Assembly (NCBI GenBank): GCA_965197585.1
Contig: OZ240215.1
Location: 2,496,001-2,560,000 of the forward strand
Direction of reading: 5' to 3'
DNA from: Dehalococcoidia bacterium
GTDB lineage: Bacteria; Chloroflexota; Dehalococcoidia; Plut-88900
Length of the DNA stretch: 64,000 bases
Part shown: positions 851 through 50,368 of the stretch, one piece after another
Layout: each line of letters begins with the position of its first letter
Position numbering within the stretch: the first letter of the stretch is position 1
The notes under the pieces: model-generated
Database searches by the model: none
What the model was told of the DNA's origin: nothing
The model's input: the letters and a program-made list of their open reading frames with translations, nothing else
Made by a program: the position numbers and the translations under genes

Positions 851-1433
851 GACCGACACCGTCCTAATGTCCCCCGCCGACATCGGCAAGTCCCTCCGCC
901 GTGTTTCCCATGAGCTCATAGAGGCCCATCCAGACACCTCTCACCTTCTTCTGATCGGCATCCGCACCCGTGGCCTCCCCCTCGCCCAGCGCATCACCCG
1001 CAATATTGCCTCCGGCGGCAATGGCCGGATCCCTGTCGCCGCCCTGGACACGACTCCCTACCGCGATGACCGGATCACCCCCGCTCAGCCTGCCAACGGC
1101 ACAGGCTCGCCCATACCCGGCGGCGTCACCGATCGCGACGTAGTCCTCGTCGACGACGTCCTCTTTACCGGACGCACCATCCGGGCAGCACTCGATGCCC
1201 TCGTCAATCTCGGGAGACCCCGCTCCGTTCAACTCCTCGTTCTCGTCGACAGAGGCCACCGCGAGCTCCCCATCCGCGCCGACTACGTGGGCAAGAATAT
1301 ACCCACTTCTCTCACTCAGACCGTCAAGGTCCGCCTCGAAGAGATGGATGGCAGAGATGAGGTCGTGCTACTGGGCGATGCTGTTTCTACACAAGGCCGA
1401 GCCCGCGTCGCCGGAGGTCTCAAACTCACATGA
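849..1433 (+). CDS. pyrR: Bifunctional pyr regulator / uracil phosphoribosyltransferase
   Basis: GIRTRG, YRDD, VVLVDDVLFTGRTIRAALD, DRGHRELPIRADYVGKN; probable TTG start at 849 (ATG at 867 is the alternative). Confidence 0.95.
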   Translation: MTDTVLMSPADIGKSLRRVSHELIEAHPDTSHLLLIGIRTRGLPLAQRITRNIASGGNGRIPVAALDTTPYRDDRITPAQPANGTGSPIPGGVTDRDVVLVDDVLFTGRTIRAALDALVNLGRPRSVQLLVLVDRGHRELPIRADYVGKNIPTSLTQTVKVRLEEMDGRDEVVLLGDAVSTQGRARVAGGLKLT

Positions 1434-4004: not shown

Positions 4005-4244
4005 ATGAGAACCACCCTAAACATAGACAACAAGCTCCTCGAAACCGTGGTGGAAGCCACGGGTGAAAGGACAAAGAGCAAGGCCGTCAATGTTGCTCTC
4101 AAGGAGTACATTCGCCGTAAGCATGTGCAAGAACTAATAGACTCTTGGGGCAAGATAATCGTCGACGACTACAGAGACGAGGTGGAGCTTGTTAACGAGG
4201 AGCGACGTACTTACCTAGAATCCTTGAGGGATGGTACGGATTGA
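4005..4244 (+). CDS. vapB: VapB-type antitoxin (RHH)
   Basis: MRTTLNIDNKLL...TKSKAVNVAL; overlaps the PIN toxin start. Confidence 0.85.
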   Translation: MRTTLNIDNKLLETVVEATGERTKSKAVNVALKEYIRRKHVQELIDSWGKIIVDDYRDEVELVNEERRTYLESLRDGTD

Positions 4245-4633
4245 CCGTCCTTCTTGATACGTCGGTACTCCTACATGCCCAGAAGCTGCCCAAGTCCGGT
4301 GTCGCGCGGCAGGTTGCGGTCCTTCTTGCTTCTGGTGAAGCCTCTGTGGCTGGCCCCGTAATCATGGAATATATGCGCGGTGCCCGGACACAAGGGCAAC
4401 TGCATTTCCTTAAGGAACGTATCGTATCCATCGACTTCTTGGTCGCGGACCAGTTGGTTTGGTCATTAGCTGGAACCCTTGCCTTTCGCCTCCGACGCTC
4501 TGGCAAGCACCTTCCCGACCCTGACGTTATTGTTGCCGCCACCGCCATCCGCCACAACGTCCCGCTCTACACTCTGGATAAGGGCTTCAACCGAATAGCT
4601 GAGCTTGAGCTTTACCAACCCTCTTTATCCTGA
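4241..4633 (+). CDS. vapC: VapC PIN-domain toxin
   Basis: LLDTSV, ..MEY..G, DVIVAATA, LYTLDKGF; the acidic PIN residues are present. Confidence 0.9.
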   Translation: MTVLLDTSVLLHAQKLPKSGVARQVAVLLASGEASVAGPVIMEYMRGARTQGQLHFLKERIVSIDFLVADQLVWSLAGTLAFRLRRSGKHLPDPDVIVAATAIRHNVPLYTLDKGFNRIAELELYQPSLS

Positions 4634-23906: not shown

Positions 23907-24065
23907 TGCCCTTACATCCCTCGGCAAGTATCCTTGACGGCTGTTGCGGCTATCCATATAACTACCCCCCACCCTTTTGTCAACCCCGCAATGCCTTAGA
24001 AGTGAGATGCTATTACAAAACTCTCCCGGAGAGAGTTTAGAATTCGTGTTTCCCTATCCCTTTGC

Positions 24066-24195
24066 GAGACCTTTGCATAACCAGTGTTGGAGGGGCTGGG
24101 GCCGCTCGTGCTGAGACTCTCGAAGTATGAGCGAGGGCGGAGGTTAAGTGATCTGGATGGCACAAACGATACATCTGCAGTTACGCAAACGTCCT
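24066..24195. mobile_element. MITE (~130 bp) with GAGACCTTTGCATAAC-type terminal inverted repeats, copy A
   Basis: TIRs at both ends; similar body at 29274-29425 and 50237-50368. Confidence 0.75.
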
Positions 24196-26365: not shown

Positions 26366-26480
26366 TTCAATCAAACTAGCTACGAATTCAATCACCCTTC
26401 AATCTAGTCCAATCAATCTTCAATCAAGTTCAATCGGCTTTCAATCTAGTCCAATCAACCTCCAATCAAGACCAATCAAT
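26366..26480. repeat. AT-rich 21-nt tandem repeat (CAATC every 10-11 nt)
   Basis: CAATC at 26368, 26389, 26400, 26410, 26421, 26431, 26442, 26452, 26463, 26473. Confidence 0.85.
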
Positions 26481-28432: not shown

Positions 28433-29224
28433 TTGAACAAGCTCGACTACACCCCCCTCGACCTCCCCCAAATCACCCACTACATGTTCTACCCCCGCCC
28501 CGACTCCTCGCCCCCTCCAACCGGCGCCCTGGACCACACCTTCCCTTCCCATGACGGGGTCCAGCTATGCGGCCGTTTCTTCCCCGAAGATAAACAACGC
28601 CCCACTATCCTCTTCTTCCACGGCAACGGTGAAGTCGCCCCCGAATACGACGCCATTTCCTCCCTTTACAACCATATCGGCCTCAACCTCTTCGTCACCG
28701 ACTACCGAGGCTACGGCAAAAGCCAGGGAGAGCCCTCCGTATCCGCCTTGGTCGAGGACAGCCACACAGCCCTCGCCGCCCTGGAGACGTTTCTCAGCAA
28801 AAACGGCTACGCTCCCTCAATCTACGTGATGGGCCGGTCCCTCGGCGCATACTGCGCTGTCGAAATAGCCGCGGGCGCCCGAGAAAACATCAAGGGCATG
28901 ATCATCGAAAGTGGCTCAGCCAACGTCGGTGGTATGCCTGAAAGGCTCGGCATCGCCGAGACCCCCGTAATCTCCCAGCTCCTCCAGGACCACTGGGCCC
29001 GGGTACGGAGCATCGACACCCCACTGCTCATCATCCACGGAGACCGTGACTTTCTCGTCCCCATCTCCCACCCCCAGGACCTCTACGAAGCCGTCTCCTC
29101 CACCGACAAGACCTTCTTCACCATCCCCGGCGCCGGCCACAACGACATCATGTTCGTCGACACAGACGCCTACTTCCGCGCCATCCGTGACTTCATAAGC
29201 CGCATGGAAGAGACCTCTGCATAA
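28433..29224 (+). CDS. Alpha/beta hydrolase
   Basis: FHGNGE, DYRGYG, GRSLG, HGDRD, GHND. Confidence 0.9.
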   Translation: MNKLDYTPLDLPQITHYMFYPRPDSSPPPTGALDHTFPSHDGVQLCGRFFPEDKQRPTILFFHGNGEVAPEYDAISSLYNHIGLNLFVTDYRGYGKSQGEPSVSALVEDSHTALAALETFLSKNGYAPSIYVMGRSLGAYCAVEIAAGARENIKGMIIESGSANVGGMPERLGIAETPVISQLLQDHWARVRSIDTPLLIIHGDRDFLVPISHPQDLYEAVSSTDKTFFTIPGAGHNDIMFVDTDAYFRAIRDFISRMEETSA

Positions 29225-29273
29225 CCGTCTTTCCCGGGATGCGGAGGGGAAGTCCAGTCCCCTCTCCCTCGAT

Positions 29274-29425
29274 GAGACCTTTGCATAATCTCTCGTGGTG
29301 GGGCCTGGGCCGCTCGTGCTGTCGTATATCCGCCGAGGCGGGAGGCTCTCGAAGTATGAGCGGGGGTGGAGGTCACGTGATCTGGGCAGTACAGCAGAGG
29401 CAATCTGTAGTTGTGCAAAGGTCTT
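29274..29425. mobile_element. MITE copy B, inserted in the loop of a family A palindrome
   Basis: Flanked by CCCCTCTCCCTCGAT and TCGACGGGAGCGGGTGAT; carries a 21-nt internal insertion. Confidence 0.75.
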
Positions 29426-29486
29426 TCGACGGGAGCGGGTGATCAGCGTCTCGCAACACCCGTCAGTCGAAGCCCTACGAAAAGAA

Positions 29487-29954
29487 TCACCCCCCAGACT
29501 CCTCCTCCCGCAGTTTCTCCAACCCTTTAAGCAGCTTCTTCACGTGCCGACCTATTCCCACAACCACGTATTCATGTGCCCCCCGCACCACCCCCGACTG
29601 GTCAATCAGGTAAGCCGTCCTGAATCCCCCAAACACCCGTAGCGAATCGTAAGATTTCCTGATCTTCCTGTCGGGGTCGGACAGCAGGACAGCCTGCATC
29701 CCAAACTCACTGCGGAACTGCGCATTGACCTCGGGGGTGTTGGGACTGATCCCGGCGACTAGGGCGTTGTATCCCTGGAAGGCTTCATCCGCGTCACGGA
29801 AGCCCTTAGATTGGATGTTTCAGAGGATGCTGAAGGCCCCGGTGTGAAAATACAGCACCACGGGTTGACGGCCAAAGTGCTCGCTCAGTCTGAACGTCTC
29901 GCCGTCATGCTGCACCGCCTCGAAATCCGGGGCCCTGGTCCCTACCTTTATCAT
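29487..29954 (-). CDS. BCP/PrxQ-like peroxiredoxin, probable selenoprotein (TGA at codon 45)
   Basis: MIKVGTRAPDF...VVLYFHTGAFSIL-TGA-NIQSKGFRD...GIS...LLSDPD...RTAYLID in one frame through TGA 29820-29822. Confidence 0.85.
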
Positions 29955-30038
29955 TCTCTCTCCCATTTACCTGTTGTTGCCCAATCCTACACGCCGCCGG
30001 GCTGCAGTTCTCTATGTACCTGACGTCTGAACTAGCCC

Positions 30039-30521
30039 TCACTCGGGTCGCACTTCCCCTCCCCCCTCCCTGTCCAGGGCCCTCAGCCCATCCAGCACAT
30101 CGTCCACGTGCTTGCCGATTCTCACCTCGTGATGGAACACCTCCCTGATGACCCCCGCCTTGTCGATAAGGTAAGTCACCCGAGACACCCCCAGTCCCAT
30201 CCTCCTTGCAACGTCGTAGAGCCGGGCGACCTTCTTGTCGGGGTCCGACACCAGCGTGAACGGAATAGAAAAATGGCGTCGGAACCAGTCGTGGCTTTCC
30301 GGGCTGTCGGTGCTGATCCCCACCACCTGCGCCCCGTACCCCCTTATGGCTTCATATGCGTCACGGAAGCCTCTGGCCTGGCGGTTTCAGCCGGCAGTGA
30401 AGTTCTTCAGATAGAAATAGAGTACGACCGCCCTGTCACCACGCCAGTCGGCGAAGTTAAACCTCTCGCCGTCATGCTGCATCGCTTCAAAATCCGGCGC
30501 CCGAGTCCCAACCTTCAGCAT
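30039..30521 (-). CDS. BCP/PrxQ-like peroxiredoxin, probable selenoprotein (TGA at codon 45)
   Basis: MLKVGTRAPDF...VVLYFYLKNFTAG-TGA-NRQARGFRD...GISTDSPESH...RVTYLID; TGA 30387-30389 sits at the peroxidatic Cys position. Confidence 0.88.
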
Positions 30522-30637
30522 TCTTCCTCCACCTATCCCTAATACTGCCCATTCTACCCCACCCCCCCACCCCCTCCGTCATTCCAGCCGCCGAGAGCCG
30601 AAATCCATCCCGTCTCCCTTCTACCCAGTACTGAACT

Positions 30638-30676
30638 AGAGGCCCGCACGGGTGCTGTGCACCCGTGCGGGCCTCT
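30638..30676. terminator. Perfect 18-bp hairpin, terminator-like
   Basis: AGAGGCCCGCACGGGTGC-TGT-GCACCCGTGCGGGCCTCT. Confidence 0.55.
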
Positions 30677-30794
30677 GTTCTTATCTCCCCCTCTCCCTTG
30701 AAGGCCCTAAGGGTCGAAGATGCGCCTATGGCGTGAGAGGGGGATCAAGGGGGTGAGGGTTCCCCTGTGGGGCTGGGGCGGTGTCCCCAAAAGT

Positions 30795-31493
30795 GTGACA
30801 CGAACCCCTTGACCCTACCCAAACATACGTGCTACTATCCTCACCGTTCGAACACCAACCTAACTTACCCAAGGAGGAACCAAAAACCCAGGGAAGCCCA
30901 CCCGACCCACCCGAGGACTCAACGTCCAAGCCCATCCCAAAGGCCCTCGCTCAGGCCCGCGGCTCAAGCTGGAACATCCGCCTCAGGCGGGAAACGACGC
31001 CATCTCCTCCTCCCACGGGCCCGGCTCACCCTTCCCCCTACTTCCAGGCGATGGAAGGTCCACAATACTAAACGGCATGTCCCTTGCAAAGGACCCCTGC
31101 CGGAATAGCCCCGCTCACGCCGGGCTAAAACACTCGGGCCTCACGGCCCTTGGAAAATCTCCCCCGTCGTTCCCTTCGGAGATCCCCATACACCCAGCGA
31201 CGGCAGCGAGAAAACGCTCGCCATCCCTCCGAGTGGCCTAGAGAAGTCTGGTGGTAGAGGCAGCCCCGAGGCGAGGACCCCTCGCTTCTCTACCACGTCA
31301 TTACAGAAACACGAGGCTGAACCAGGCTGGCCTCCCGCCCCCTGAATCCGAGTCCAGGACCTTCCATCGCCTGCCCCCTCCCAAACCAAACAGAACAAAC
31401 CGAAACCCCACAATCGAAGATGGAACATCCGCCTCTGGAGGATCCGCCTCTGGAGGACTGAAGAAAAACCCGGTGTGTCACCAACCTACCGGA
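30795..31493 (+). ncRNA. Candidate large structured ncRNA element, copy 1
   Basis: Own promoter, no credible ORF, 17-bp long-range stem 31045-31061/31357-31373, homologous to 43357-44062. Confidence 0.55.
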
Positions 31494-31576
31494 TCGGTAC
31501 GGTTCGTTGACCCGACATTTACCCCAAATGTATACTCGAATTCATCTGAGGCCCCGCTTTTATCAGGAGGAATATC

Positions 31577-32740
31577 ATGACCCGTTCCATCGTAATCGAC
31601 GCCGACAGCCACATCATGGAACCGCCCACCTTGTGGCAGGAGTACATGGACCCCGAGTTCCGTAGCCGGGCCCTGCGAATCAGTGCGGATGAATTCGGCT
31701 TGGAGTATCTCGACATCGATGGCAAGGTCAGCATCGGGTACAACGGGGGCACCCTGGGCAGGATTGCGGGCGTCGACCAGACCCGGCAGTGGATGATGGA
31801 GCATCCCACCCTCCCCTATGACGAGATCAAGAACTTCGCCCCGGGATCCGTAGACCCCCACGCTCGGATCAAACACCTGGATAGGCACGGTGTCGACAAG
31901 ACCTTCCTCTTCCCGACCCTCGGCCTCGGTTGGGAAGCCGAGTGCGAAGACCCTGCACTTTCCGCCGCCTATTGCACCGCCTACAACCGCTGGCTTGTCG
32001 ATTTCTGTGCGCCCTACCCCGACCGGCTGATCCCCATAGCCCACGTCACGGTGCGAGACGTGAACGAGGGCATCAAGGAATTGGAGAGGGCCGCAAGGGA
32101 TGGCATGAAGGGCGCATTCATCTGTCCGGCGCCCATGAACGGCATCCGCTACAGCCACGAATACTATGACCGTTTCTGGGCCACCGCCCAGGACCTGGAC
32201 ATGCCCATAACCTTCCACGTAGTCCTCAACCCCGACTACCCCGGCCGCAACTCTTATCCTGAAGACGAGACCGGCCTCGGCCCCGTGTTCTTCAACAACG
32301 TGATGACCTTCGCCGACCCCCTGATCAGCTTTACCTGCATGATGGGCGACGGCACCTTCGAAAAGTTCCCCGGCCTGAAACTGTCCATGGTCGAAGTCGG
32401 CTGTACCTGGCTCCTCCACTGGCTCGACATGATGGATTTCAAAACCGGTCGGTTCAGCTTCGACATGTCCCTTACCATGACCCCCAGTGAGTACTTCCGT
32501 CGCCAGGTCTGGGTCAGCGCTGAACCTATCGAAAAGGGCCTCGGCGCAGTGGCCCAGATGGTCGGGACCGACCGCTTCATGTGGGGTTCCGACTGGCCCC
32601 ACCCCGAGGGCCACACCGACCCCCTCAACAAGGTCAAGCACAACATCGCAAGCCTTTCGGAAGCCGACCAGAACAAGATCCTGGGCGAAAACGCCCTCGC
32701 CATGTACGGCCTGTCCGTGCCCGCCCCTGCCGTGGGCTAG
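31577..32740 (+). CDS. Amidohydrolase_2 family protein (paralog 1)
   Basis: DADSH, AYNRWL, FWA..QDL..P..FH, WGSDWPHPEG. Confidence 0.92.
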   Translation: MTRSIVIDADSHIMEPPTLWQEYMDPEFRSRALRISADEFGLEYLDIDGKVSIGYNGGTLGRIAGVDQTRQWMMEHPTLPYDEIKNFAPGSVDPHARIKHLDRHGVDKTFLFPTLGLGWEAECEDPALSAAYCTAYNRWLVDFCAPYPDRLIPIAHVTVRDVNEGIKELERAARDGMKGAFICPAPMNGIRYSHEYYDRFWATAQDLDMPITFHVVLNPDYPGRNSYPEDETGLGPVFFNNVMTFADPLISFTCMMGDGTFEKFPGLKLSMVEVGCTWLLHWLDMMDFKTGRFSFDMSLTMTPSEYFRRQVWVSAEPIEKGLGAVAQMVGTDRFMWGSDWPHPEGHTDPLNKVKHNIASLSEADQNKILGENALAMYGLSVPAPAVG

Positions 32741-32759
32741 ACGAAAAGGAGTATCTGCT

Positions 32760-33920
32760 ATGGCACCTGGAATAGTTGTCGACTCGGACAGCCACATCCT
32801 GGAACCCGCCACTATGTGGAGGGACTACATTGATCCTGACTACCGCTCGCGCGCCATGGGCATTGAGTTCGACGAACTGGGTCTCGAATACCTGGACATC
32901 GACGGCAAGATGAGCAGCGGCTACAACGGCGGCGCTCTTGGCCGCATCGCCGGCGTCGAGAAGGACCGCGAGTGGATTATGGGTCACGCTACCCTCCCCT
33001 ACGCCGAGGCCGCCACCCTCGCCCCCGGCGCTGCCTACCCCGCCGAGAGAATCAAGCACCTCGCCAGGGAGGGCGTCGATAAGACCTTCCTCTTCCCCAG
33101 CCTCGGCCTCGGTTGGGAAGCCGAGTGTGAAGACGCCGAAATCTCCGACGCCTATTGCCGGGCCTACAACCGCTGGCTCGTCGATTTCTGCAAGGATCAC
33201 CCGGACCAGCTCTTCCCCGTGGCCCACGTCTCCGTCAGAGAGGTCGAGTTCGGTGTCGCCGAGCTCCAGCGCGCCGCCAAGGACGGTATGAAGGGCGCTT
33301 TCATCTGCCCTGCCCCCGTCAACGGCATCCGCTACGGAGACTCCTATTACGACCCCTTCTGGGCTGCCGCCCAGGACCTCGACATGCCTATCACCCTGCA
33401 CGTCATCTTCAACCCCAACTACGTCGGCAAGCACCTCTACCCCGACCACCCCGGCCTCGGGCCCGAGTTCTTCGTCGAGTCCATGGTCTTCGGCGATCCC
33501 TTCCTCTCCTTCACCAACATGATGACCGAAGGCGTATTCGAAAAGTTCCCCAACCTCCGCATCTCCATGGTCGAGATTGGCTCCACCTGGGTCGCCCACT
33601 GGCTCGACTTCCTGGACTTCAAGTTCTCTCGCTTCGGCTTCGACACCATCCTCACCATGAAGCCCAGCGAGTACTTCAAACGCCAGTGCTGGATCAGCGC
33701 CGAACCTATAGAGAAAGGCCTGGGCGCCGTGGCCCAGATCGTCGGCACGGACCGCTTTCTCTGGGGCTCCGACTGGCCCCACCCCGAGGGCCACACCGAC
33801 CCCCTGAGCAAGGTCAAGGCCAACATCGCCGATCTCCCGGAAGCAGACCAGCGCAAGATTCTCGGCGAAAACGCCCTAGCCCTCTACCGCCTGGCCTCCC
33901 CGGCTCCGGCTGTAGGGTAG
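32760..33920 (+). CDS. Amidohydrolase_2 family protein (paralog 2)
   Basis: Close tandem paralog; DSDSH, WGSDWPHPEG; SD AAGGAG before ATG 32760. Confidence 0.92.
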   Translation: MAPGIVVDSDSHILEPATMWRDYIDPDYRSRAMGIEFDELGLEYLDIDGKMSSGYNGGALGRIAGVEKDREWIMGHATLPYAEAATLAPGAAYPAERIKHLAREGVDKTFLFPSLGLGWEAECEDAEISDAYCRAYNRWLVDFCKDHPDQLFPVAHVSVREVEFGVAELQRAAKDGMKGAFICPAPVNGIRYGDSYYDPFWAAAQDLDMPITLHVIFNPNYVGKHLYPDHPGLGPEFFVESMVFGDPFLSFTNMMTEGVFEKFPNLRISMVEIGSTWVAHWLDFLDFKFSRFGFDTILTMKPSEYFKRQCWISAEPIEKGLGAVAQIVGTDRFLWGSDWPHPEGHTDPLSKVKANIADLPEADQRKILGENALALYRLASPAPAVG

Positions 33921-35069: not shown

Positions 35070-36245
35070 CTACTTCACGTACAGCTTGTGCTCCAACCCA
35101 TCCGTCAGAGTCTTGCACCCGTCCTCCGTGACGAGAATCGTGTCGCTGTTCACCGCCCTCTTCACCCTGCCGAGACCCTGCAGGGCCACATGCCCCGCCA
35201 GCAGGTGGAAGGTCATTCCCGCCTGAAGTGGCCGGGTCTCCCCCTCCGTCATACTGATGATGTGCCCTTCGCCCCAGTCCGGCGCAAAAGCGATTCCTAT
35301 CGAATATGCCGCCCGGCTGTTTCGCTTGCTCCCCGAGCCCATTGCCTCCTCCAGGCTCTCCTGCACCAGCCGGTGTATCTCCCCCGCCGGGACCCCCGGC
35401 CTGATCGCCGACTTCGCCATAGCCATCACTTCCACACCCACCTCCCGGGCCCTGAGCAGCAGTTCAGGTGGGTCCCCGAGAAATATCTGCTGATAGGTCG
35501 CCGCGTGATAGCGGTTAATACACCCCGGCATCTCTATTGTCACGCTATCCCCGGGCTGTATCACGTTCCGATACCACGTCGAATGGGTCATCGAGTCCCG
35601 CTCCCCCGTCCTTATGAATATCGGCAGTCCCGTATACTCGCTCCCCGCCTTTATCTGCGCCCGATGAATCTCCGCCGCCACGTCGTTCTCCGTCACCCCC
35701 ACCTGGCAGGCCTCGATCCCCGCCCTCAACCCCGCCTCCGCCGTCTTCGCCGCCTGCCTTATGTACTCGATCTCCTGCGCTGATTTCACCATCCTCCCCT
35801 CCTCCACCAGCCCCGACCCATCCACAAAAGTCGCTGACGATAAGGCAGCCGCAAGCCCCTTCTCATCACGAGATGTCAGGAAGAACGAGTCATATTGCAC
35901 CCCGATACGCGCATCTGCCTTACCCAGGTCCGTTAGCACGTCCCGCGTGTGGGCTATCCAGTCCTCATGGTCTTCGTAGGGCCGGCTGTCCTCGACCCAG
36001 GATTGAGGCGCAATGTTGGACTCCTCATTGAGCCGGGTGATGAACACCGGCTCCCGGTCCATCGTCACTATCAGCATCTGGTACCAGTAGTAGCCGGGAG
36101 TCTGGTAACCGGAAACGTAATACAAGTTCTCCGGCGAGTTGACCAGCAGAACATCAATCCCCCGTTCTTCCATCCGGTGTCGCAGCGCATCAAGCCGCCC
36201 TTGATATTCCTCCAGCGTGAAGAACTGGTACTTGGGGCTCCTCAT
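35070..36245 (-). CDS. M24 pita-bread hydrolase, DoeA/EutD- or creatinase-like (paralog 1)
   Basis: PENLYY.SGY, R.VKS..EI, RYHA, YSIGIAFAPDWGEG. Confidence 0.85.
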   Translation of the reverse strand: MRSPKYQFFTLEEYQGRLDALRHRMEERGIDVLLVNSPENLYYVSGYQTPGYYWYQMLIVTMDREPVFITRLNEESNIAPQSWVEDSRPYEDHEDWIAHTRDVLTDLGKADARIGVQYDSFFLTSRDEKGLAAALSSATFVDGSGLVEEGRMVKSAQEIEYIRQAAKTAEAGLRAGIEACQVGVTENDVAAEIHRAQIKAGSEYTGLPIFIRTGERDSMTHSTWYRNVIQPGDSVTIEMPGCINRYHAATYQQIFLGDPPELLLRAREVGVEVMAMAKSAIRPGVPAGEIHRLVQESLEEAMGSGSKRNSRAAYSIGIAFAPDWGEGHIISMTEGETRPLQAGMTFHLLAGHVALQGLGRVKRAVNSDTILVTEDGCKTLTDGLEHKLYVK

Positions 36246-36267
36246 ATCTGCTCCTTCGGTCTAGTCG

Positions 36268-37428
36268 TTACTTGACGAACAACTTCTGTTCCACACCACC
36301 CGTCAGCGTCTCACAACCGTCCTCCGTGACCAGGACAGTGTCGCTGCAGAGAATGCCCCCGAACCCCGGGACCCGAACCCCGGGAATCAGGTGGAATGCC
36401 ATCCCGGCCTGCAGAGGTCGCTCCTCACCTCTAGTGATGCTGATGATGTGCCCTTCTCCCCAGTCGGGAGCGAAGGCTATGCCTATCGAGTACGCCGCCC
36501 GACGCTCCAGTTTCGCCCCCAGGTCCGCCGAGTCCAGCATCTCCTTGATCTCTTCGAACAGGTCCCCCGCCACGACCCCCGGCCTGATCTTCTCCTTGGC
36601 CTTCTTCAGGGTGTCGGTAACCACATCCATCCCCCTCACCATCATCTCCGACGGCTCCCCGATATACACTTCCCTCATCATGGCGACGTGATAACGGTTC
36701 ACGCACCCCGGCACCTCGAAGAAGACTACCTCGTTTTCCTGCAAAGGCCTCCTGTACCAGGTGGCGTGCGTCATTGTAGACCGCACACCCGAGGCCACAA
36801 AAATCGGCAAGCCCGTGTATTCGCTTCCTGCCTTGATCTGTGCCCTGTGCATCTCCGCCGCCACGTCGTTCTCTGTCGCGCCGAGCCCCACCGCCTCTAT
36901 CCCCGCCAGGGTAGCCGCCTCTGCAGCCTTAGCTGCCTGCCGCATGTACTCGATCTCCTGTGGAGACTTGATCATCCGCCCCTCTTCGATCAGTCCCGTG
37001 CTGTCCACGAACTTGGCCCCCGGCATCAGGCCCTTCAGCTTCAGATAGTCCCTTGCCGGAAGAAAGAAACTCCCAAGCTCCATCCCGATCGTCTTCCCCC
37101 CGAGCCCCAGGTCCACCAGCACGTCCCGAGTCTTCTCCACCCAGTCCTCATAGTCCTCATACGGCCGCCGGTCCTCGACCCACCCCAGCTCCCGCATGTT
37201 TGAGTCCTCAACCCGCCGCGTGATCGACACAGGCTCCCGGTCCATTGGCACAACCAGCGTCTGCCACCAGTAATACCCTGGCGTCTGGTAGCCTGAGAGG
37301 TAGTACAGGTTCTCCGGCGTGTTCACCAGCACCGCATCCACCCCCAACCCCTCCATCCGCCCCCGAAGCGCATCGAGCCTTTGCTGGTACTCCTCCAGCT
37401 CAAAATACTGCCAGTTCGGTTTCTTCAC
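36268..37428 (-). CDS. M24 DoeA/EutD-like hydrolase (paralog 2)
   Basis: Same motifs as paralog 1. Confidence 0.85.
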   Translation of the reverse strand: MKKPNWQYFELEEYQQRLDALRGRMEGLGVDAVLVNTPENLYYLSGYQTPGYYWWQTLVVPMDREPVSITRRVEDSNMRELGWVEDRRPYEDYEDWVEKTRDVLVDLGLGGKTIGMELGSFFLPARDYLKLKGLMPGAKFVDSTGLIEEGRMIKSPQEIEYMRQAAKAAEAATLAGIEAVGLGATENDVAAEMHRAQIKAGSEYTGLPIFVASGVRSTMTHATWYRRPLQENEVVFFEVPGCVNRYHVAMMREVYIGEPSEMMVRGMDVVTDTLKKAKEKIRPGVVAGDLFEEIKEMLDSADLGAKLERRAAYSIGIAFAPDWGEGHIISITRGEERPLQAGMAFHLIPGVRVPGFGGILCSDTVLVTEDGCETLTGGVEQKLFVK

Positions 37429-37494
37429 CTATTCCTCCGTTGCCCTCTCTCTTTGTTGATCCATTGCCTTACCCCGCCATCTTAGGCGGGGTAT

Positions 37495-37539
37495 TCCGCT
37501 CGCCCTGAGCTGAGTCGAAGGGTCTCAAGAGCGGAATCG
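37495..37539. repeat. REP-like repeat family B (CCGCTCGCCCTGAGC-n-GTCGAAGGG)
   Basis: Related copies near 42335, 43176, 47396, 54991 and inside the MITEs. Confidence 0.75.
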
Positions 37540-37636
37540 GTGGGGTGTCCCGGCCCCCGCCCGGAGTTACGCAAAGGTCTCTCGATGGGAGAGGGCCAGG
37601 GTGATCCCCGTTCTTGTGACTGGAAGGTCTATCCCC

Positions 37637-38797
37637 CTACTTCGAAAACAGCTTCCTCTCCACATTCCCAGTTATCGGCTCACAACCGGTCTCCGTCACC
37701 AACACCGTCTCGCTCACCCCCACCGACGACAGCCCCGGTATAAAAATAGCCGGTATCAGGTGGAAGGTCATCCCGGCCTTCAACTCCCGGTATTCACCCT
37801 CGTTCATGCTGATAATGTGCCCTTCGCCCCAGTCCGGCGCAAACGCTATTCCTATGGAATATGCTGCCCGGTGAGTCAGCTCCACCCCCAGCCCCGCCCC
37901 CCCGATGACGTTCTTGCACACCATGTGGGCGTCGTGAGCCGTGACCCCGGGTTTAATAAATTTGATCATTTCCTCCAGGGCCTCAGCCATGACGGCCGTC
38001 GCCTTTATGGACCCCTCCGGCGGATCACCCAGGTACACGTTCCGCATCTGCGAGGCGTGGTACCGGTTGATGCAACCCGATAGCTCCAGGAACACCGTGT
38101 CCCCTGGCTGTATCGTTTCCCGATACCACGTTACGTGCCCCAGGAACGACCTCTTACCGGCGGTGACGAACAGGGGAAGCCCCGTGTATTCGCTCCCCGC
38201 CTTTATCTGCGCCGCATAGACCGCCGCCGCGACTTCATTCTCCGTCACCCCGACCTCCGACGCCTCTATCCCCGCCAGTACCCCCGCCTCCGTGGCCCGG
38301 GCTGCCTGCGTAATGTACTCGATCTCCTTCGGCGACTTGATCATCCTCCCCTCTTCCACCATCATCGAGCAGTCCACCCACTTCGCGTCCGGCAGCATCC
38401 CCTTCAACCTGTCGTAGTCCTGGATGGTTATGAACCAGGAGCTCATCTCCACACCTATCCTCTTCGACCCCATCCCCAGGTCCTCCAGCGTGTCCCGCGT
38501 CCGAGCCACCCAGTCGTCCGAGTCCCCGTAGGGCCGGCTGTCCTCCACCCAGGTCAGGTGCTCCACGTTGGAGTTTTCCAGGAGGCGGGTTATGAACACC
38601 GGCTCCCGGTCCATCGTAACTATGAGGGTCTGGTACCAGTAGTAGCCGGGGGTCTGGTACCCGGTTAGGTAATACAGGTTCTCCGGCGTGTGCACCATCA
38701 TGCAGTCCACACCCTTCGCCTCCATCCGCGCCCTTAGAGCGTCCAGCCTGCCCTGGTATTCCTCCAGGGTGAAGTACTGCCAAGTTGCCGTCTTCAT
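37637..38797 (-). CDS. M24 DoeA/EutD-like hydrolase (paralog 3)
   Basis: Same motifs as paralog 1. Confidence 0.85.
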   Translation of the reverse strand: MKTATWQYFTLEEYQGRLDALRARMEAKGVDCMMVHTPENLYYLTGYQTPGYYWYQTLIVTMDREPVFITRLLENSNVEHLTWVEDSRPYGDSDDWVARTRDTLEDLGMGSKRIGVEMSSWFITIQDYDRLKGMLPDAKWVDCSMMVEEGRMIKSPKEIEYITQAARATEAGVLAGIEASEVGVTENEVAAAVYAAQIKAGSEYTGLPLFVTAGKRSFLGHVTWYRETIQPGDTVFLELSGCINRYHASQMRNVYLGDPPEGSIKATAVMAEALEEMIKFIKPGVTAHDAHMVCKNVIGGAGLGVELTHRAAYSIGIAFAPDWGEGHIISMNEGEYRELKAGMTFHLIPAIFIPGLSSVGVSETVLVTETGCEPITGNVERKLFSK

Positions 38798-43356: not shown

Positions 43357-44062
43357 GTGACATCACCCTCTTGACTTTATAAGACGTATGTTCTATATTG
43401 GAAATAGTCTAGACCACCTAACCCAACCACCTTAAGGAGGTACCGCACAACCTAGGGAAGCCCACTCGACCCACCGAGGACTCAACACCCAAGCCCATCC
43501 CAAAGGCCCTCGCGCAGGCCCGCGGCACAAGCAACCGGTGCCATCTCCTCATCCCCATCGGGTCCCGTGCCCTCTTCCCTGACACCCAGGCGATGGAAGA
43601 CATCCTGGACTCACCCCGGCACAGGCCCTCCTGAGTGAAGGGCCGTCGCAGCCGATGTAGCCCACTCTTTATCCGGCGCCGGCCTTCCTCTAATGGAAGG
43701 CCGTATAGATGGGCCATAACAGCCGAAAGATGCAGCGCCTTCCTTGCAGGGCGCACTACGTGGCCGGCATTGACCTTGCCGGCGAATCGAAAGAGCCCCC
43801 CAACGTGGGGCTACAAGGGCCATCGAGCCCTTCTGGTGGACGGGGAACCCCCACACCGGGAGATTCTCTCCACCCCGACCGCCTTCACAAACACAAGTGG
43901 GGTGAGCAGGTCGGCCTCCCGCCCCCTGCGCCCGAGTCCCGGACCTTCCATTGCCTGCCCCCTCCCAACAGACAGAACGGAAACCGAAACCCCACAATCG
44001 AAGATGGAACATCCGCCTCTGGAGGACTGAATAAAAGGCCGGTGTGTCGCTAACCTACTGGA
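43357..44062 (+). ncRNA. Candidate large structured ncRNA element, copy 2
   Basis: Promoter TTGACT-17-TATATT, long-range stem 43587-43612/43934-43957, ends conserved with copy 1. Confidence 0.55.
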
Positions 44063-44186
44063 CGAGTACTCACCACCGCCGCCCCCCACCCCAATGTTGT
44101 ATTATTGCCCGCAGGCCCCGAGGCCACGTAGTCGGCAGGCGCAGGGCGGTCTCGTAAATTAATACTATCGGTAGGAATACAAGCAA

Positions 44187-45536
44187 ATGCCAGAAGACGA
44201 CAACAATGTCCTTGATGCCGTAATTGTGGGAGCGGGGATAGCGGGATTGACTGCTGCCTACCGGCTTAAAGACAAGAACATCCTTGTCCTCGAAAAAGAG
44301 GATGTGTGCGGCGGCCGCACCGTCTCCCGCAAGATGGGCGAATACGTTTACAACACCGGTGCCCAGGTCGTCCTAGGCGACGAAAGCGAAACGGCAAAGC
44401 TCGCCCGGGAAATCGGAGTCGAAAAGACCCTCATCGGCAAGACCCGCATGCCCATGCACATGAAGGGCAAGCTCATCACAGCCCCCCTCAAACCCAAGAC
44501 CCTGGGTGAACCGCTCTTCCTCTGGCGATTGCCAATACCTTTCTTCGAAAAAGTGAAGATAGGCCTCAAGGTCCTCCGAATCCGCCGCCGATACAGCGAG
44601 CTCGTAGACCAGGAGCCCGACCCCTATAACAAGAAGACCCAGGAGCTCTCCTCCGAGACCCTCGAAAGCTTTATGGGCGCCTATCACCCCGATATCCGCG
44701 CCATCTGGGACACCCTCTCCAAGGGCGCCAACACCGTCACCGCAGACCAGGTTGCCGCCTTCCAGCCCATCAACACCTTCCTCCATTTCGCAGAGGACGA
44801 GTATTACGTTAACGGCGGCACCTGGGAGCTGACCAAGGCCCTCTGGGACAAAGTCAAAGACAAGACCGAGACTTCCGCAAGCGTCGACGAGATAGTCCAC
44901 GAAAACGGTACCGTACGCGTCACCTATGACCACGCCGGCCAACGTACGTCCGTCACCGCCCGACGTTGCGTAATCGCAATCCCTGGCCCCCTCGTGTCGC
45001 CTATTGTCAAGGATATGCCTCAATGGAAGCGCGATGTCCTTGCCAAGGTCGACTTCGGCGCCATGACCTCCGCCGGTTTCCTCCTTAGCGAAAATTCGGA
45101 GCGATTCCTCGGCGAAGGCGTCTGGCGCGTACCAATTGTCGGCAAGAAGATCGTCTCCGTGACCAATCCCACCTTCACCTTCCCCAAGGAGGTCAAACAG
45201 CGCACGGGCCAGGGCCTCCTGCGGGTCTATACGGGTGACAAGGCTTCCAAGGAGCTCCAGCAGATGTCTGACGGCGAAGCCCTTGAAGTCCTCACTGAGG
45301 AGCTTGTCTCCGCCTTCCCTGACATAGCGGGCAAGATCGTGGAAACCTCCATAAAGCACTGGCCTAATGCCATCAGCCCCTGGCGCGTGGGCCGACTCGA
45401 AATCGCCGAGCAGATCAAGCAGCCCACGGGTCGCATTCATTACTGCGGCGATTACACCGTCAGCGGTGGCCTGGAGGCCGCCGTCCTTTCCGCATACCGC
45501 ATCCTGCGTGAAATGGAAACTGAACCCGCCGCCTAA
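44187..45536 (+). CDS. FAD-dependent amine oxidase / protoporphyrinogen oxidase-like (paralog 1)
   Basis: GAGIAGL, LEK...GGR, CGDY...LEAAVLS. Confidence 0.85.
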   Translation: MPEDDNNVLDAVIVGAGIAGLTAAYRLKDKNILVLEKEDVCGGRTVSRKMGEYVYNTGAQVVLGDESETAKLAREIGVEKTLIGKTRMPMHMKGKLITAPLKPKTLGEPLFLWRLPIPFFEKVKIGLKVLRIRRRYSELVDQEPDPYNKKTQELSSETLESFMGAYHPDIRAIWDTLSKGANTVTADQVAAFQPINTFLHFAEDEYYVNGGTWELTKALWDKVKDKTETSASVDEIVHENGTVRVTYDHAGQRTSVTARRCVIAIPGPLVSPIVKDMPQWKRDVLAKVDFGAMTSAGFLLSENSERFLGEGVWRVPIVGKKIVSVTNPTFTFPKEVKQRTGQGLLRVYTGDKASKELQQMSDGEALEVLTEELVSAFPDIAGKIVETSIKHWPNAISPWRVGRLEIAEQIKQPTGRIHYCGDYTVSGGLEAAVLSAYRILREMETEPAA

Positions 45537-45553
45537 CCCGCTGCATATATACC

Positions 45554-46888
45554 ATGCCTGATGCCTCAAACTCCCCCGACTCCCTCCTGGACCTGGTCAT
45601 TGTAGGCGGCGGCCTCGCCGGGCTTACCACTGCCTACCGACTGCGTGAGCGGAATATCCTCCTCCTGGAAAAGGAGGATATTCCCGGCGGCCGGACCGAG
45701 TCCCGAGCCCTTGGCCCTTACGTCTACAACGCCGGGGCCCAGGTCGTCCTCGGGGACACGGGCCCCTTGGCCACGCTCGTCGATGAGATAGGAGTCAAGC
45801 GCACCCTGATCGCCAAGTCCAAGCTTCCCCTCTATATGAACGGCAAACTAGTCGCATCCTCCAACGAGTACGGGCTCCTTCTCAAGATGCCCATACCCTT
45901 CCTGGACAAGATCAAGTTCGCCTGGCACATCTGGAAAACCCGGCGAAAATACAGGTCCCTCTTAAACGCCGACTTCGATCCCACCGACCCCAAGGTCATC
46001 GAGCTAAACTCCACCACCGTCGACGAATTCTTAGGCAACGCCCCGAAGTCCGTGCGCGAGTTGTGGGACGTCTTCGCCGTAACCGCCAGCACCATGGGCG
46101 CCGACACCGTCACCCCATTCCACCCCCTCATGGTTATCCTCTTCTTCATGGCCGACGAATATTTCGTCGAGGGCGGCACCAACCAGGTCACCATCGCCCT
46201 CCACCGCCTGCTCGGTGACAAAGCGGTTCTCGGCGCCGAAGTGCTCGAAGTGAAAGAGCTGGAGGATCGAGTCCAGGTCACTTACGACCGCGGAGGCAAG
46301 AAACAGACCGTGCAGGCCCGACGCTGCATCATGGCTACCCCGGCTCCCATAACCCTAAACTGCGCCCAGGACCTCCCCGACTGGAAACGGGAAGCTCTCG
46401 CCAAAATTGAGTACGGCTCCATGACCACCGCGGCATTCCTGGTCGATGAGCTTTCCGAAAATCTCATCGGTAAGGGCGTATGGCGGGTTCCCGTCTCCGG
46501 CCAGAAGGTCTGCGCTATAACTGACCCCTCTTTCACCTATCCCGATGACTACAAGAGCAAGACTGGCATGGGGATCCTGCGCGTATACACCGGCAACGCA
46601 GTTGCCAAGGACCTTATGTCTCGCTCGGACGGCGAAGTGTCGGAAGTCCTGCTCGACGACCTTGTGGAGATGGTCCCTGCCGTCCGTGGCAAGATCGTAG
46701 AGTCGGATGTCGCCCACTGGAACCACGCCATACCTCTCTGGAAACCCGGCCACACCGAGATTTATCCCCTGCTGCAGAAACCCGTCGGCCGGCTCCATTT
46801 CTGCGGCGACTACACCAGCGCCGGGTTTACCAACGGCGCCGTCCAGTCCGGAGACCGAGTCGTCCAAGAGATTAAGGACCAGGACTGA
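45554..46888 (+). CDS. FAD-dependent amine oxidase-like (paralog 2)
   Basis: GGGLAGL, GGRT, CGDY...NGAVQSG. Confidence 0.85.
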   Translation: MPDASNSPDSLLDLVIVGGGLAGLTTAYRLRERNILLLEKEDIPGGRTESRALGPYVYNAGAQVVLGDTGPLATLVDEIGVKRTLIAKSKLPLYMNGKLVASSNEYGLLLKMPIPFLDKIKFAWHIWKTRRKYRSLLNADFDPTDPKVIELNSTTVDEFLGNAPKSVRELWDVFAVTASTMGADTVTPFHPLMVILFFMADEYFVEGGTNQVTIALHRLLGDKAVLGAEVLEVKELEDRVQVTYDRGGKKQTVQARRCIMATPAPITLNCAQDLPDWKREALAKIEYGSMTTAAFLVDELSENLIGKGVWRVPVSGQKVCAITDPSFTYPDDYKSKTGMGILRVYTGNAVAKDLMSRSDGEVSEVLLDDLVEMVPAVRGKIVESDVAHWNHAIPLWKPGHTEIYPLLQKPVGRLHFCGDYTSAGFTNGAVQSGDRVVQEIKDQD

Positions 46889-47667: not shown

Positions 47668-48909
47668 CTAACCCACCACCCCCCGCCCCACTAACTCCTC
47701 TACCTCCTCCCGAGAAAGCCCCATCAACTCCTCTAGAACATAGCCGTTGTGCTCGCCCATCTTCGGCCCCGGCCGACTCATCGCCAACGGCGTCCCCGAC
47801 ATCTTCCAAGGCTGCGTCGGCATCTTCGCCCGACCCTGCACCGGGTGCTCGTCCCACGTGAAGAACCCCCGAGCCGCCAGATGCTCGTCGTGATATAGGT
47901 CCGCGTTCGTAAATGTCGCCACGGCCCCCAACCCCACCCCCTGCAGAGCATTCATTGCCTCTAACTTGGAGCGCTGCTGAGTCCACCCTTCGACTATCTC
48001 GGCCAGAGCATCTTCGTGCCCCTTTCGCGCCGACGCAGTGCCGAACCTCTCGTCCCGTGCCAGCTCATCCCTCCCGATCGCCGAGCATAGCCTCACCCAT
48101 TCTTCGTCGCTCGCTATTACAATGCTGATCCACGAGTCCTCTCCGGCGCAGCGATATATCCCGTGGGGCGCCATGCCGGGGGCCCGATTGCCCATCCGCT
48201 CCGCCTCTGCCCCGTTCATCTCGTAGTCCATCAACTTCTCAGGCTGGAATCCGATCACCGTCTCTTCCTCCGAAAGGTCGATGTGCTGACCCCTGCCTGT
48301 CCTCGACTGGTAATGCAAAGCAGCCAATATCGCCGAGGCCCCCGCCACTCCCCCCGACGGATCGGGCATCTCGACCCAGTCGGACACGGCTTCCGCACCC
48401 GGATATCCCACTGAGGTCATAAGCCCCGAGATGTTGGACACGTGCATCCCGTAAGTCACCCATCGGGACCTAGCCCCATATCCCCCAAACCCCGAAAGCG
48501 CCGCCATGATCACTTGCGGATTTACTTTGATTAGATCCTTGTATCCCAACCCCAGCCTATCCGCCACTCCAGCCCGGAAGTTCTCTGCCATCACGTCGCT
48601 GATTGATACCAGCTTTTTGGCCAATTCCATGCCCTCGGGCTTGCGGAGGTTCAGGGTCACACTCAGGCTGTTCCGGTGCATCTGTGCGAACCACATCGCC
48701 GTGTCGGGGCCGGGGATGTTGTCCTTGAATGGAGGGTAGTATCGGGCCAGGTCCAGCTTGACATTGCTCTCGATCTTGATTACCTCCGCCCCCATGAACG
48801 CGAGCAACGACACACAATGAGGCCCGGCCCACGACGCGGTGAAGTCAGCTACCCGGATCCCGTCCAGCGCCCCCTTGAGTCCCGCGTGCCCTCTGCCTGC
48901 CGACGCCAA
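47668..48909 (-). CDS. CoA-transferase family III (CaiB/BaiF)
   Basis: ALDGIRVADF...AGP, GAEVIKIE, ENFRAG, GQHIDLS. Confidence 0.9.
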   Translation of the reverse strand: MASAGRGHAGLKGALDGIRVADFTASWAGPHCVSLLAFMGAEVIKIESNVKLDLARYYPPFKDNIPGPDTAMWFAQMHRNSLSVTLNLRKPEGMELAKKLVSISDVMAENFRAGVADRLGLGYKDLIKVNPQVIMAALSGFGGYGARSRWVTYGMHVSNISGLMTSVGYPGAEAVSDWVEMPDPSGGVAGASAILAALHYQSRTGRGQHIDLSEEETVIGFQPEKLMDYEMNGAEAERMGNRAPGMAPHGIYRCAGEDSWISIVIASDEEWVRLCSAIGRDELARDERFGTASARKGHEDALAEIVEGWTQQRSKLEAMNALQGVGLGAVATFTNADLYHDEHLAARGFFTWDEHPVQGRAKMPTQPWKMSGTPLAMSRPGPKMGEHNGYVLEELMGLSREEVEELVGRGVVG

Positions 48910-48912
48910 ACC

Positions 48913-50130
48913 TTAGATAGTCCCTTCCCGCCTGAGCCGCGCCAACTCCTCCCCCGAGAACCCAAGCCCCTCACCATAAACCTCATCATTGTGCTGCCCG
49001 AGCAGAGGCGCGGACACCCGAGTCGAGCTCTCCGTCTCCGAAAACCTGAACGGCACGGAGGGATACCGCAGCTTGCCCGCATCCTGGTGGTCCATCTCCA
49101 CGAAAAACCCACGCTCCTTCAGGTGTTCATCCCGAGCCAACCGTTCCGCGGTCACGCCCACGGGGCTCGCCGGGACCCGGTTCTCGATGGCGCGCTCAAC
49201 CACCCAATCCTTATCCTTGTCCTCCAGCCACTCAATCAGGAAGGCGTTTATGATGTCGTAGTTCAGCCGACGTCCCTCCGCACTCTGCGTCCACTCCTCT
49301 CGGCTCCAATCCGGCTCTCCCAGCATTTTGACTAGCCCCACCCACTGGTGAGGCTCGATGGCGCTCAGGAGCACGTAGCCGTCCCGGCACGGAAGAATCC
49401 CCGAGGGCACCGACGCTGGAATCGCAGCGTCCTTGCCCTGTATCCGGTTCTCGCCGTTGTAGATGGGAAAGCCGGCAGCTAGTATGAAGGCCATCGCCTC
49501 CTGCTCCGACACGTCGATGTGCTGCCCCTCCCCACCCCGGTCTCTGAAATAAAGCGCCCCCAGCGCAGCCGTCAGCGCGTTATATGCGGCCTGGAACGCA
49601 GGAAGAAATCCCGGCGCCCGCACCGGACGCCCCGGAATACCGTAGGCATCCCGCTCCCTCCAGAGATACCCCCAGCCCCCCGCATGCCACCGGTTCAGGT
49701 CGTGTGCCACGTAGTCCTTGTATGGCCCCTCCTGCCCGAAAGGGGTTATCGACACCATAATCAGACCCGGGTTCTCTTTCCTCAGCGACTCGTACCCCAA
49801 TCCCAGCTCCGATAGCCTACCCGGAGGCCCATTTTCTACCAGTATGTCCGACCCCGACACCAACCGCCTGAACATCCGATCGCCCTCCGCCGAGGTCACG
49901 TCCAGCGTGATCCCCTTCTTGTCCAGGTTCATTGCGAGGAATAGGCCGCTCTTCTCTGGGTGAGCCTCACCGCCTGGGAATGGCCCGTGGCCCCGCGCCC
50001 CGTCCCCCTCCGGTGGCTCCACCTTGATCACTTCCGCCCCGAGAGAGGCCATCAGCCGAGCACAATACGGCGCCGACACCATCTCCCCCAACTCAACCAC
50101 CCGGATGCCATCAAGCGTTCTTTCTTCCAT
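48913..50130 (-). CDS. CoA-transferase family III (probable partner subunit)
   Basis: LDGIRVVE, GAEVIKVEPP.GD, SITPFG..GP, APLLGQHN. Confidence 0.9.
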   Translation of the reverse strand: MEERTLDGIRVVELGEMVSAPYCARLMASLGAEVIKVEPPEGDGARGHGPFPGGEAHPEKSGLFLAMNLDKKGITLDVTSAEGDRMFRRLVSGSDILVENGPPGRLSELGLGYESLRKENPGLIMVSITPFGQEGPYKDYVAHDLNRWHAGGWGYLWRERDAYGIPGRPVRAPGFLPAFQAAYNALTAALGALYFRDRGGEGQHIDVSEQEAMAFILAAGFPIYNGENRIQGKDAAIPASVPSGILPCRDGYVLLSAIEPHQWVGLVKMLGEPDWSREEWTQSAEGRRLNYDIINAFLIEWLEDKDKDWVVERAIENRVPASPVGVTAERLARDEHLKERGFFVEMDHQDAGKLRYPSVPFRFSETESSTRVSAPLLGQHNDEVYGEGLGFSGEELARLRREGTI

Positions 50131-50236
50131 CAGCGCGTTAAGCCCCTAATCGCTGAAATAGGTGTCCTTCGCATAACAACAGCGGATCGGTGTCCAATCC
50201 CCCCTCCCCTCGACGAGTCGCAGATGCGCCTTTGGC

Positions 50237-50368
50237 GTGACCCTTGCATAACCTCTCTCGGTGGGGCCGGGGCCGCTCGTGCTGAGGCTCTCGAAGTATG
50301 AGCGGGGGGTGGAAATCACGTGATCTGGACAGTACAGCGAAGGCAATTTGTAGTTACGCAAAGGTCTC
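50237..50368. mobile_element. MITE copy C
   Basis: GTGACCCTTGCATAAC...GTTACGCAAAGGTCTC, nested in a family A repeat. Confidence 0.75.

Follow-up and report, generated by a model that had tools for sequence, protein, structure and literature searches.

Reading an in-frame TGA in two adjacent peroxiredoxin genes

How should two adjacent peroxiredoxin genes be read when each carries an in-frame TGA at the codon for its catalytic residue? The question is raised by a stretch of 64,000 nucleotides from a Dehalococcoidia bacterium (NCBI GenBank assembly GCA_965197585.1, contig OZ240215.1, positions 2,496,001 to 2,560,000 of the forward strand; hereafter the window, in whose own numbering coordinates are given), in which two such genes, here called A and B, lie in tandem on the minus strand. 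A preliminary description of this DNA had taken them for two diverged selenoprotein peroxiredoxins, each with a hairpin of the selenocysteine insertion sequence (SECIS) type 3' of the UGA. The present analysis upholds that view. A and B are very probably selenocysteine (Sec)-containing thiol peroxidases of the BCP/PrxQ branch, in which the UGA at codon 45 would be read as Sec by way of a bacterial SECIS. This conclusion is drawn from sequence comparison, and what carries it is the pairing of TGA with Cys codons in 88 of 88 homologous copies, the conservation of the tandem, covariation in the hairpin and constraint on synonymous sites.

Two genes hidden from standard annotation

Gene A runs from 30521 to 30042 and gene B from 29954 to 29490, and each contains a single in-frame TGA, at codon 45. 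The features of the locus, all on the minus strand, are as follows.

30526..30530, minus strand: GGAGG, a putative Shine-Dalgarno-like sequence 4 nt 5' of the gene A ATG
30042..30521, minus strand: gene A, BCP/PrxQ-type peroxiredoxin, 160 codons, predicted Sec at codon 45, stop TGA at 30039-30041
30387..30389, minus strand: predicted Sec codon (UGA), codon 45 of gene A, peroxidatic position, context ...FTAG-U-NRQ...
30346..30373, minus strand: SECIS-type hairpin of gene A, 6-bp stem GGCUUC/GAAGCC (30371-30366 with 30353-30348), extendable to 8 bp
29955..30038, minus strand: A-B spacer of 84 nt, with a GGGAGAG run at 29958-29964 that is a putative Shine-Dalgarno-like sequence ahead of the gene B ATG
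29490..29954, minus strand: gene B, diverged paralogue, 155 codons, predicted Sec at codon 45, stop TGA at 29487-29489
29820..29822, minus strand: predicted Sec codon (UGA), codon 45 of gene B, context ...FSIL-U-NIQ...
29779..29806, minus strand: SECIS-type hairpin of gene B, outer stem as in A; an inner UCCGU/GCGGA stem may form, and the apical loop is GAC

Reading the frames thus agrees with the preliminary description on the position and context of both TGA codons. It had also held that open reading frame (ORF) callers miss the genes, and this is what was found. Translation table 11 breaks gene A into ORFs of 44 and 95 aa and gene B into ORFs of 48 and 70 aa. A protein search returned 119 relatives, and all of those at 80-89% identity are C-terminal fragments of 88-107 aa that start just past the TGA; the full-length relatives in the protein database (at most 55% identity) read FTAGCT at the site. 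The reading proposed here would correct an annotation error, since the genes are stored as truncated fragments in the source genome and its relatives, and both antioxidant capacity and selenium dependence would be under-counted in these Dehalococcoidia through such fragment annotation.

The two proteins are 51% identical, and the genes are 61% identical at the nucleotide level across their first 318 nt. The first 71 nt (29893-29963 in B and 30460-30530 in A, covering the ribosome-binding region and about 20 codons) are 83% identical, for which gene conversion or constraint at the 5' end may be responsible. A search of the minus strand between A and B gave no terminator-like site, and given this and the 84-nt spacer the two genes are likely co-transcribed.

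Cysteine or TGA at codon 45

Homologues were collected by a scan of one genome per species with a 15-row query alignment, which returned 80 loci (those named below carry L numbers). These loci gave 86 copies, which together with the two genes of the window make 88; the count includes a weak second match in L025 (28% identity, TGT) that was dropped from later comparisons. At the column of codon 45, 53 copies have TGA and 35 have TGC or TGT, and no other codon occurs. The Cys/TGA pairing that the preliminary description had proposed for this column is therefore found in every copy, and no homologue lacking both was seen.

The 53 TGA forms comprise 18 from Chloroflexota, 17 from Acidobacteriota, 17 of Desulfobacterota type and one other. 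Besides the window, TGA orthologues were found in L001-L007, L009-L011 and L044 and in 35 genes of other phyla, with coding sequence conserved on both sides of the TGA. The A-B tandem, with TGA in both genes, is present in five further Dehalococcoidia genomes (L001-L005), to which tblastn alignments run continuously from residue 1 to about residue 150-160 at 65-94% identity. In these genomes the gene A orthologues are 71-86% identical in alignments that cross the TGA, and the gene B orthologues are 65-94% identical with the TGA kept. L001 also shares the neighbouring α/β-hydrolase, ABC-2 permease and amidohydrolase genes of the window; because both the tandem pair and these neighbours are common to the two, they are close relatives.

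A conserved hairpin 3' of the TGA

A 24-nt hairpin lying exactly 15 nt past each TGA, conserved while the bases between diverge, was a central observation of the preliminary description, and both parts of it stand. The 24-nt pattern has exactly two matches in the window (30348-30371 and 29781-29804, minus strand), each exactly 15 nt past a TGA, with 0 expected from 100 shuffles. The two copies agree at 22 of 24 positions, as against 8 of 15 in the spacers between TGA and hairpin and the 61% identity of the first 318 nt. In both genes the hairpin begins 13-15 nt past the TGA and has a stem of 6-8 bp, and in gene A the loop is 12 nt long and begins CGUGA. Minimum free energies (MFE) are -7.2 kcal/mol for gene A and -9.3 kcal/mol for gene B when 24 nt are folded, and -8.7 and -11.6 kcal/mol when 28 nt are folded.

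These properties can be compared with the consensus bacterial SECIS (bSECIS) model of bSECISearch, as it is presented in Fig. 2 of PMC13188914. There the distance from UGA to apical loop is 16-37 nt, the upper stem has 4-16 bp, the apical loop has 3-9 nt and a G at position 1 or 2, after which a G or U is common, and the MFE is -7.5 kcal/mol or lower. In A and B the 15-nt spacer and the 6-nt arm place the loop 21 nt from the UGA, the stem has 6 bp (8 bp by RNAalifold), and loop positions 2 and 3 are G and then U. Both 28-nt hairpins lie below the energy limit, with the 24-nt version of gene A, at -7.2, just above it. No Rfam family matched anywhere in the window at gathering thresholds, and in E-value mode the region 29200-31600 gave a chance snoRNA match only (E 0.64).

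The orthologues are more telling than the two paralogues. An alignment of the 60 nt from the TGA was made for 17 Chloroflexota Sec genes, with L044 omitted for its differing arms (it has its own GGAGUU/AACUCC stem and a CGUGA loop). The 6-bp stem pairs in 99% of cells, and sliding the 3' partner lowers this to 55% or below. Two pairs show compensatory changes: L007 has A-U in place of G-C, and L006 and L007 both have C-G in place of U-A, this second change coming from a Phe-to-Leu substitution (UUC to CUC) matched by a synonymous change of GAA to GAG. RNAalifold independently predicted the identical stem, extended it to 8 bp and added a third covarying pair. The percentage paired and the covariation score of the real alignment were equalled in just 1 of 500 shuffles. 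The loop starts with C-G-U in 16 of the 17 genes and with C-G-G in the other.

Synonymous sites are also constrained here. At codons 51, 52 and 53 the fraction of synonymous differences is 0.00, 0.00 and 0.12; taken over codons 51-58 it is 0.25, compared to 0.47 in the rest of the gene. For the 48 nt past the codon, the median folding z-score is -0.8 in the 17 Chloroflexota Sec genes, -1.9 in 36 other Sec genes and +0.5 in 34 Cys genes; the Cys homologues have mixed Arg codons and mostly no comparable fold. In the other Sec clades this position has different stems, which use the same Phe codon: Acidobacteriota Sec genes have a 9-bp GCCUUCCAG/CUGGAAGGC stem, and 14 of the 17 Desulfobacterota-type genes have UUCCAG-CGKGAU-CUGGAA. 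The 17-sequence alignment with its compensatory changes is a well-supported, family-specific SECIS alignment from which a model for detecting members of this subfamily could be built.

Weighing the alternatives

Several results weigh against reading UGA as Sec through this hairpin. Folded singly, the A and B hairpins do not surpass shuffled sequences (z -0.3 to -1.1). A second stretch, at coding-sequence nt 34-64, is equally conserved between A and B (22/24), and part of the nucleotide conservation in the hairpin is due to the protein, since F-R-D is also conserved in Cys homologues. The conserved loop has 12 nt where the model has 3-9; individual MFE folds give 3-nt loops, but by way of non-conserved inner pairs, and with its MFE inner stem gene A would have an ACG apical loop with no G at either position 1 or position 2, which departs from the model on that point. 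Covariation events are few (two or three, confined to L006, L007 and the 18/43 pair), and as many covarying pairs and pair types as observed turned up in 55-57 of 500 shuffles. The difference in folding between Sec and Cys genes has a Mann-Whitney p of 4e-10, a value that overstates the evidence as the sequences are related, and one Cys form, L013, folds well (z -2.35). Finally, SelA, SelB and SelD had no Pfam match among the 55 ORFs of the window, ARAGORN found no tRNA, and hence no tRNA-Sec, in these 64 kb, and the 37 of the 80 loci scanned for it contained ordinary tRNAs only.

The first four of these points, namely the weak single-sequence z-scores, the second conserved stretch, the F-R-D of Cys homologues and the oversized loop, would also fit a reading in which A and B are selenoproteins but GGCUUC...GAAGCC is kept only as the coding sequence of G-F-R-D-x-x-E-A, which is indeed what the hairpin encodes in this peroxiredoxin family, with the functional SECIS elsewhere or not needed. 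This is improbable. Protein coding would not by itself freeze the synonymous sites of codons 51-53, nor would it retain a base pair when UUC becomes CUC and GAA becomes GAG in L006 and L007 or when G-C becomes A-U in L007. The mixed Arg codons and the general lack of a fold in Cys homologues, and the different stems at the same spot in two other Sec clades, point the same way. The comparison of the paralogues alone would not be decisive; the orthologue data are.

It is less probable still that an altered genetic code or a suppressor tRNA makes the UGA a codon for one of the standard amino acids (Trp, Gly or Cys), although the frame is open under any sense reading of TGA and the window contains no visible Sec machinery. 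TGA terminates 14 of the 49 Pfam-supported ORFs in the window, in addition to genes A and B themselves. A read-through scan of the window's gaps gave 16 other candidates, in none of which a domain spans the TGA: 14 belong to no family and two are VapB/PIN sequences that end ahead of the TGA. Because TGA ends so many genes and no other read-through domain occurs in the gaps, a code change or general suppression is unlikely. No suppressor tRNA was found in the window, and a UGA in place of a redox Cys, with a hairpin after it, is the signature of Sec. With regard to the wider group, PMC13326102 describes BSepDB as placing two Dehalococcoidia metagenome-assembled genomes, with 49 and 46 genes for selenoproteins, in the top ten bacteria by selenoprotein richness. 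Together with the DUF3179 candidate of L010 described below, this is indirect evidence that the lineage uses Sec.

That A and B are pseudogenes inactivated by nonsense mutation, or that each is two short ORFs, has next to no likelihood, for while table 11 splits both genes and the public predictions for relatives are fragments, the same catalytic column has TGA in 53 genes from at least three phyla, the protein is conserved on both flanks of the TGA, the paralogue pair is retained in six genomes, and the start codons and Shine-Dalgarno-like sequences are intact.

Active site and proposed mechanism

Selenocysteine in A and B would occupy a well-defined position. Both proteins match Pfam AhpC-TSA (PF00578) far above its gathering cut-off of 26 bits, gene A with 116.9 bits (6.7e-34, residues 4-127) and gene B with 85.4 bits (4e-24). 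Their best solved relatives are of BCP type, 3drn (E 1.1e-34 for gene A, residues 1-152) and 5enu (E 1e-26), and phmmer alignments to the BCPs 3drn, 5enu and 5iph match residue 45 with the peroxidatic column of T-P-G-C/S-T. Neither protein reaches the cut-off of 140 bits of the NCBIfam BCP equivalog NF006960 (95.5 bits for A, 55.6 for B). The residue at position -3 is T42 in A and S42 in B; T or S is found there in 51 of the 53 Sec forms, and the remaining two, with Gly, are among the six B orthologues. The active-site Arg (R114 in A) is invariant across a 27-sequence alignment that includes both window proteins.

Other parts of the active site are altered. The proteins contain no Cys at all, and the motif Pro at position -7 is replaced by Leu in A and by Thr in B. 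The preliminary description had placed residue 45 at the peroxidatic Cys and had noted that both proteins lack a resolving Cys and the motif Pro, and it was right on all three points. More broadly, all 34 Cys forms have the Pro, as against only 4 of the 53 Sec forms, and a resolving Cys at +5, the residue of the 2-Cys BCP mechanism, is found in 29 of the 34 Cys forms and 2 of the 53 Sec forms. These counts, however, trace to just two independent losses of Pro on the tree, and an independent-pairs test of Pro loss against Sec had 2 supported pairs and thus no power. The loss of the active-site Pro and of the resolving Cys in Sec forms is the mildly unusual part of this system, and its link to Sec offers a small testable lead on the reasons for switching from Cys to Sec.

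From these features a mechanism can be proposed. The UGA at codon 45 would be translated as Sec, with the hairpin, whose loop starts 21 nt past the UGA, presumably recruiting SelB with Sec-tRNA(Sec), and the terminal TGA of each gene, which has no such hairpin, would end translation. The selenolate should attack the peroxide, because both proteins retain Thr or Ser at the catalytic -3 position and also the conserved Arg. The missing resolving Cys points to a mechanism of the 1-Cys type, and with no Cys in either protein the selenenic acid would have to be reduced by an external thiol (thioredoxin, glutaredoxin or a small thiol), in what may be called a '1-Sec' mechanism. A more speculative and rather doubtful idea is that Sec in place of the peroxidatic Cys frees the otherwise invariant active-site scaffold of the peroxiredoxin, even the catalytic Thr having changed to Ser or Gly in the fast-evolving B line, so that B might no longer be a plain peroxidase but a selenol-based partner or reductase working with A. 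If true, this would account for the retention of the tandem Sec pair in six genomes.

Origin of the pair and of its hairpin

In a quick IQ-TREE phylogeny of 87 proteins, A, B and their orthologues form an all-Sec clade of 12 rows (support 96). Within it the A genes make up one clade and the B genes another, the latter on a long stem (support 100, stem branch 1.01). The whole is nested among Chloroflexota genes, in a group with 18 Sec forms and 2 Cys forms. Because the clade is all-Sec and lies among Chloroflexota Sec genes, the gene duplicated in tandem to give B must already have encoded Sec, and the hairpin is shared by descent. B would thus have arisen in the ancestor of a Dehalococcoidia group, carried the SECIS along and diverged fast. 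The window holds several other tandem paralogue runs (two Amidohydro_2 genes at 31577-33920, three creatinase/M24 peptidases at 35070-38797, two amine oxidases at 44187-46888 and two CoA-transferase III genes at 47668-50130), and the peroxiredoxin pair is therefore one of many local duplications.

One Cys-form BCP gene stands among the Chloroflexota Sec genes. This gene (L008, 6797-7249, plus strand) has TGC at the catalytic codon and a 5-bp GCAUU/AAUGC hairpin at the position of the SECIS, which suggests a possible reversion from Sec to Cys.

In two respects the preliminary description went too far. It had proposed that the pair defines a lineage-specific SECIS and that the hairpin could be used to scan for further selenoproteins. 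However, the hairpin is common to A and B through duplication, and a covariance model of it, run on the window and 13 loci (318,345 bases), recovered just its 17 training sites below E 1e-4. Two weaker hits of this model were rejected: L011 7999-8031 (E 0.069) lies inside a tRNA-synthetase-like ORF at its F-R-E-D codons, and L044 12207-12243 (E 0.2) inside a dehydrogenase E1-like ORF, and neither has a TGA.

A second selenoprotein candidate did come from a different search. A read-through scan of 11 Chloroflexota loci gave 122 candidates, of which 66 were taken to Pfam (both flanks at least 25 aa, BCP genes excluded), and only one had a domain that spans the TGA. This is a DUF3179 gene in L010 (19390-20445, minus strand) with an in-frame TGA at codon 131 (TWUPLC), about 9 kb from the Sec-BCP gene of that genome, and DUF3179 is listed as a selenoprotein family with the motif UxxC/T in the tabulation of PMC13188914. 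Past its TGA is the hairpin CCGGUC-UGGUGCAC-GACCGG, with 6 bp and an 8-nt loop, unlike the hairpin of A and B. The latter is not a lineage-wide SECIS but is tied to the G-F-R-D-x-x-E-A codons of this family. It should be noted that bacterial SECIS elements, as PMC13188914 describes them, usually share architecture and not sequence.

Other features of the window

A non-coding element of about 780 nt occurs twice on the plus strand (30800-31580 and 43363-44190), with 77% column identity and long blocks that do not vary. Directly downstream of each copy is a plus-strand gene, an amidohydrolase at 31577 and an amine oxidase at 44187, and the leader is also found ahead of the orthologous amidohydrolase in L001 and L002. 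It opens with a promoter-like TTGACC...TACTAT (30809-30838) and has no Rfam match. About 120 nt upstream of gene A, at 30637-30677, is a GC-rich, near-perfect hairpin of 19 bp with a T-rich tail on the plus strand, where no plus-strand gene is nearby to terminate.

Several families of short intergenic repeats, 60-88% identical, occur at gene ends, the region just downstream of gene B among them. One family is at 24058-24137, 29266-29345 and 50229-50308, another, of 44 nt, at 12461, 13438, 27495 and 29234, and a third, of 42 nt, at 13484, 26209 and 50380. These may be REP-like elements. A 21-nt tandem repeat of about 5 copies (26368-26472, 62-74% identical) is intergenic and upstream of an ABC transporter ATPase gene.

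Among the remaining genes, a VapB antitoxin and a PIN-domain (VapC-like) toxin form a pair at 4005-4633 (plus strand). A 463-aa ORF at 1430-2821 (plus strand) combines the catalytic domains of aspartate carbamoyltransferase with a PyrI_C regulatory-chain metal-binding domain, and looks like a pyrB-pyrI fusion in a pyrimidine-biosynthesis cluster. GC skew is negative in every 2-kb interval of the window (-0.05 to -0.29, cumulative -6.0) with genes on both strands, an asymmetry that is unusually strong and uniform.

Comparison with known systems

A literature search found no paper specifically on Sec-peroxiredoxins of Dehalococcoidia or SAR202. The enzyme type itself is long known, as the preliminary description had said. 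In the 2006 survey (PMC1794560) Sec-peroxiredoxin appears as one of 25 bacterial selenoprotein families, with 12 members and 5 Cys-to-Sec events, and Chloroflexi and Acidobacteria are already among the phyla listed there as bearing selenoproteins; a 2026 review (PMC13188914) tabulates the Prx selenoprotein family as PF00578/TxxU. A and B add members to this family and constitute no new class of system, though they do add a documented tandem Sec pair.

As the family is described in these sources, A and B share with it the AhpC/TSA domain, a peroxidatic Sec, the T/S-x-x-U arrangement, a SECIS in the coding region and the existence of Cys homologues. They differ from the motif PxxxTxxU given in PMC13188914 by Leu (A) or Thr (B) in place of Pro, and from the family at large by the Ser at -3 of gene B, the absence of any Cys and the arrangement of the two Sec genes in tandem. 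The PrxU protein of Eubacterium acidaminophilum (NCBIfam NF040737, peroxi_PrxU) is likewise a Sec peroxiredoxin, but its whole-length profile matches only weakly: against a profile of 233 positions, with the match starting from position 35, A scores 59.1 and B 36.1 bits where the cut-off is 270. Judged by these profile scores, A and B are not PrxU equivalogs and belong to a different Prx subfamily.

The BCP/PrxQ thiol peroxidases (Bcp1 of Sulfolobus solfataricus, 3drn; 5enu) resemble A and B in length, in the active-site column and in the Arg. However, these enzymes have Cys in the catalytic position, retain the Pro and in most cases carry a resolving Cys at +5, and A and B differ in all three. 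The Prx-like thiol:disulfide oxidoreductase selenoproteins (PF00578, UxxC/UxxU) share the Pfam domain and a Sec in the redox motif, but A and B read U-N-R-Q and U-N-I-Q there, with no second Cys or Sec. As for the hairpin, A and B agree with the bSECIS consensus as set out in PMC13188914 in having a stem-loop directly 3' of the UGA and in spacing, stem length, loop G-U and MFE, and depart from it in the size of the conserved loop, for which the inner pairs that would shorten it are not conserved.

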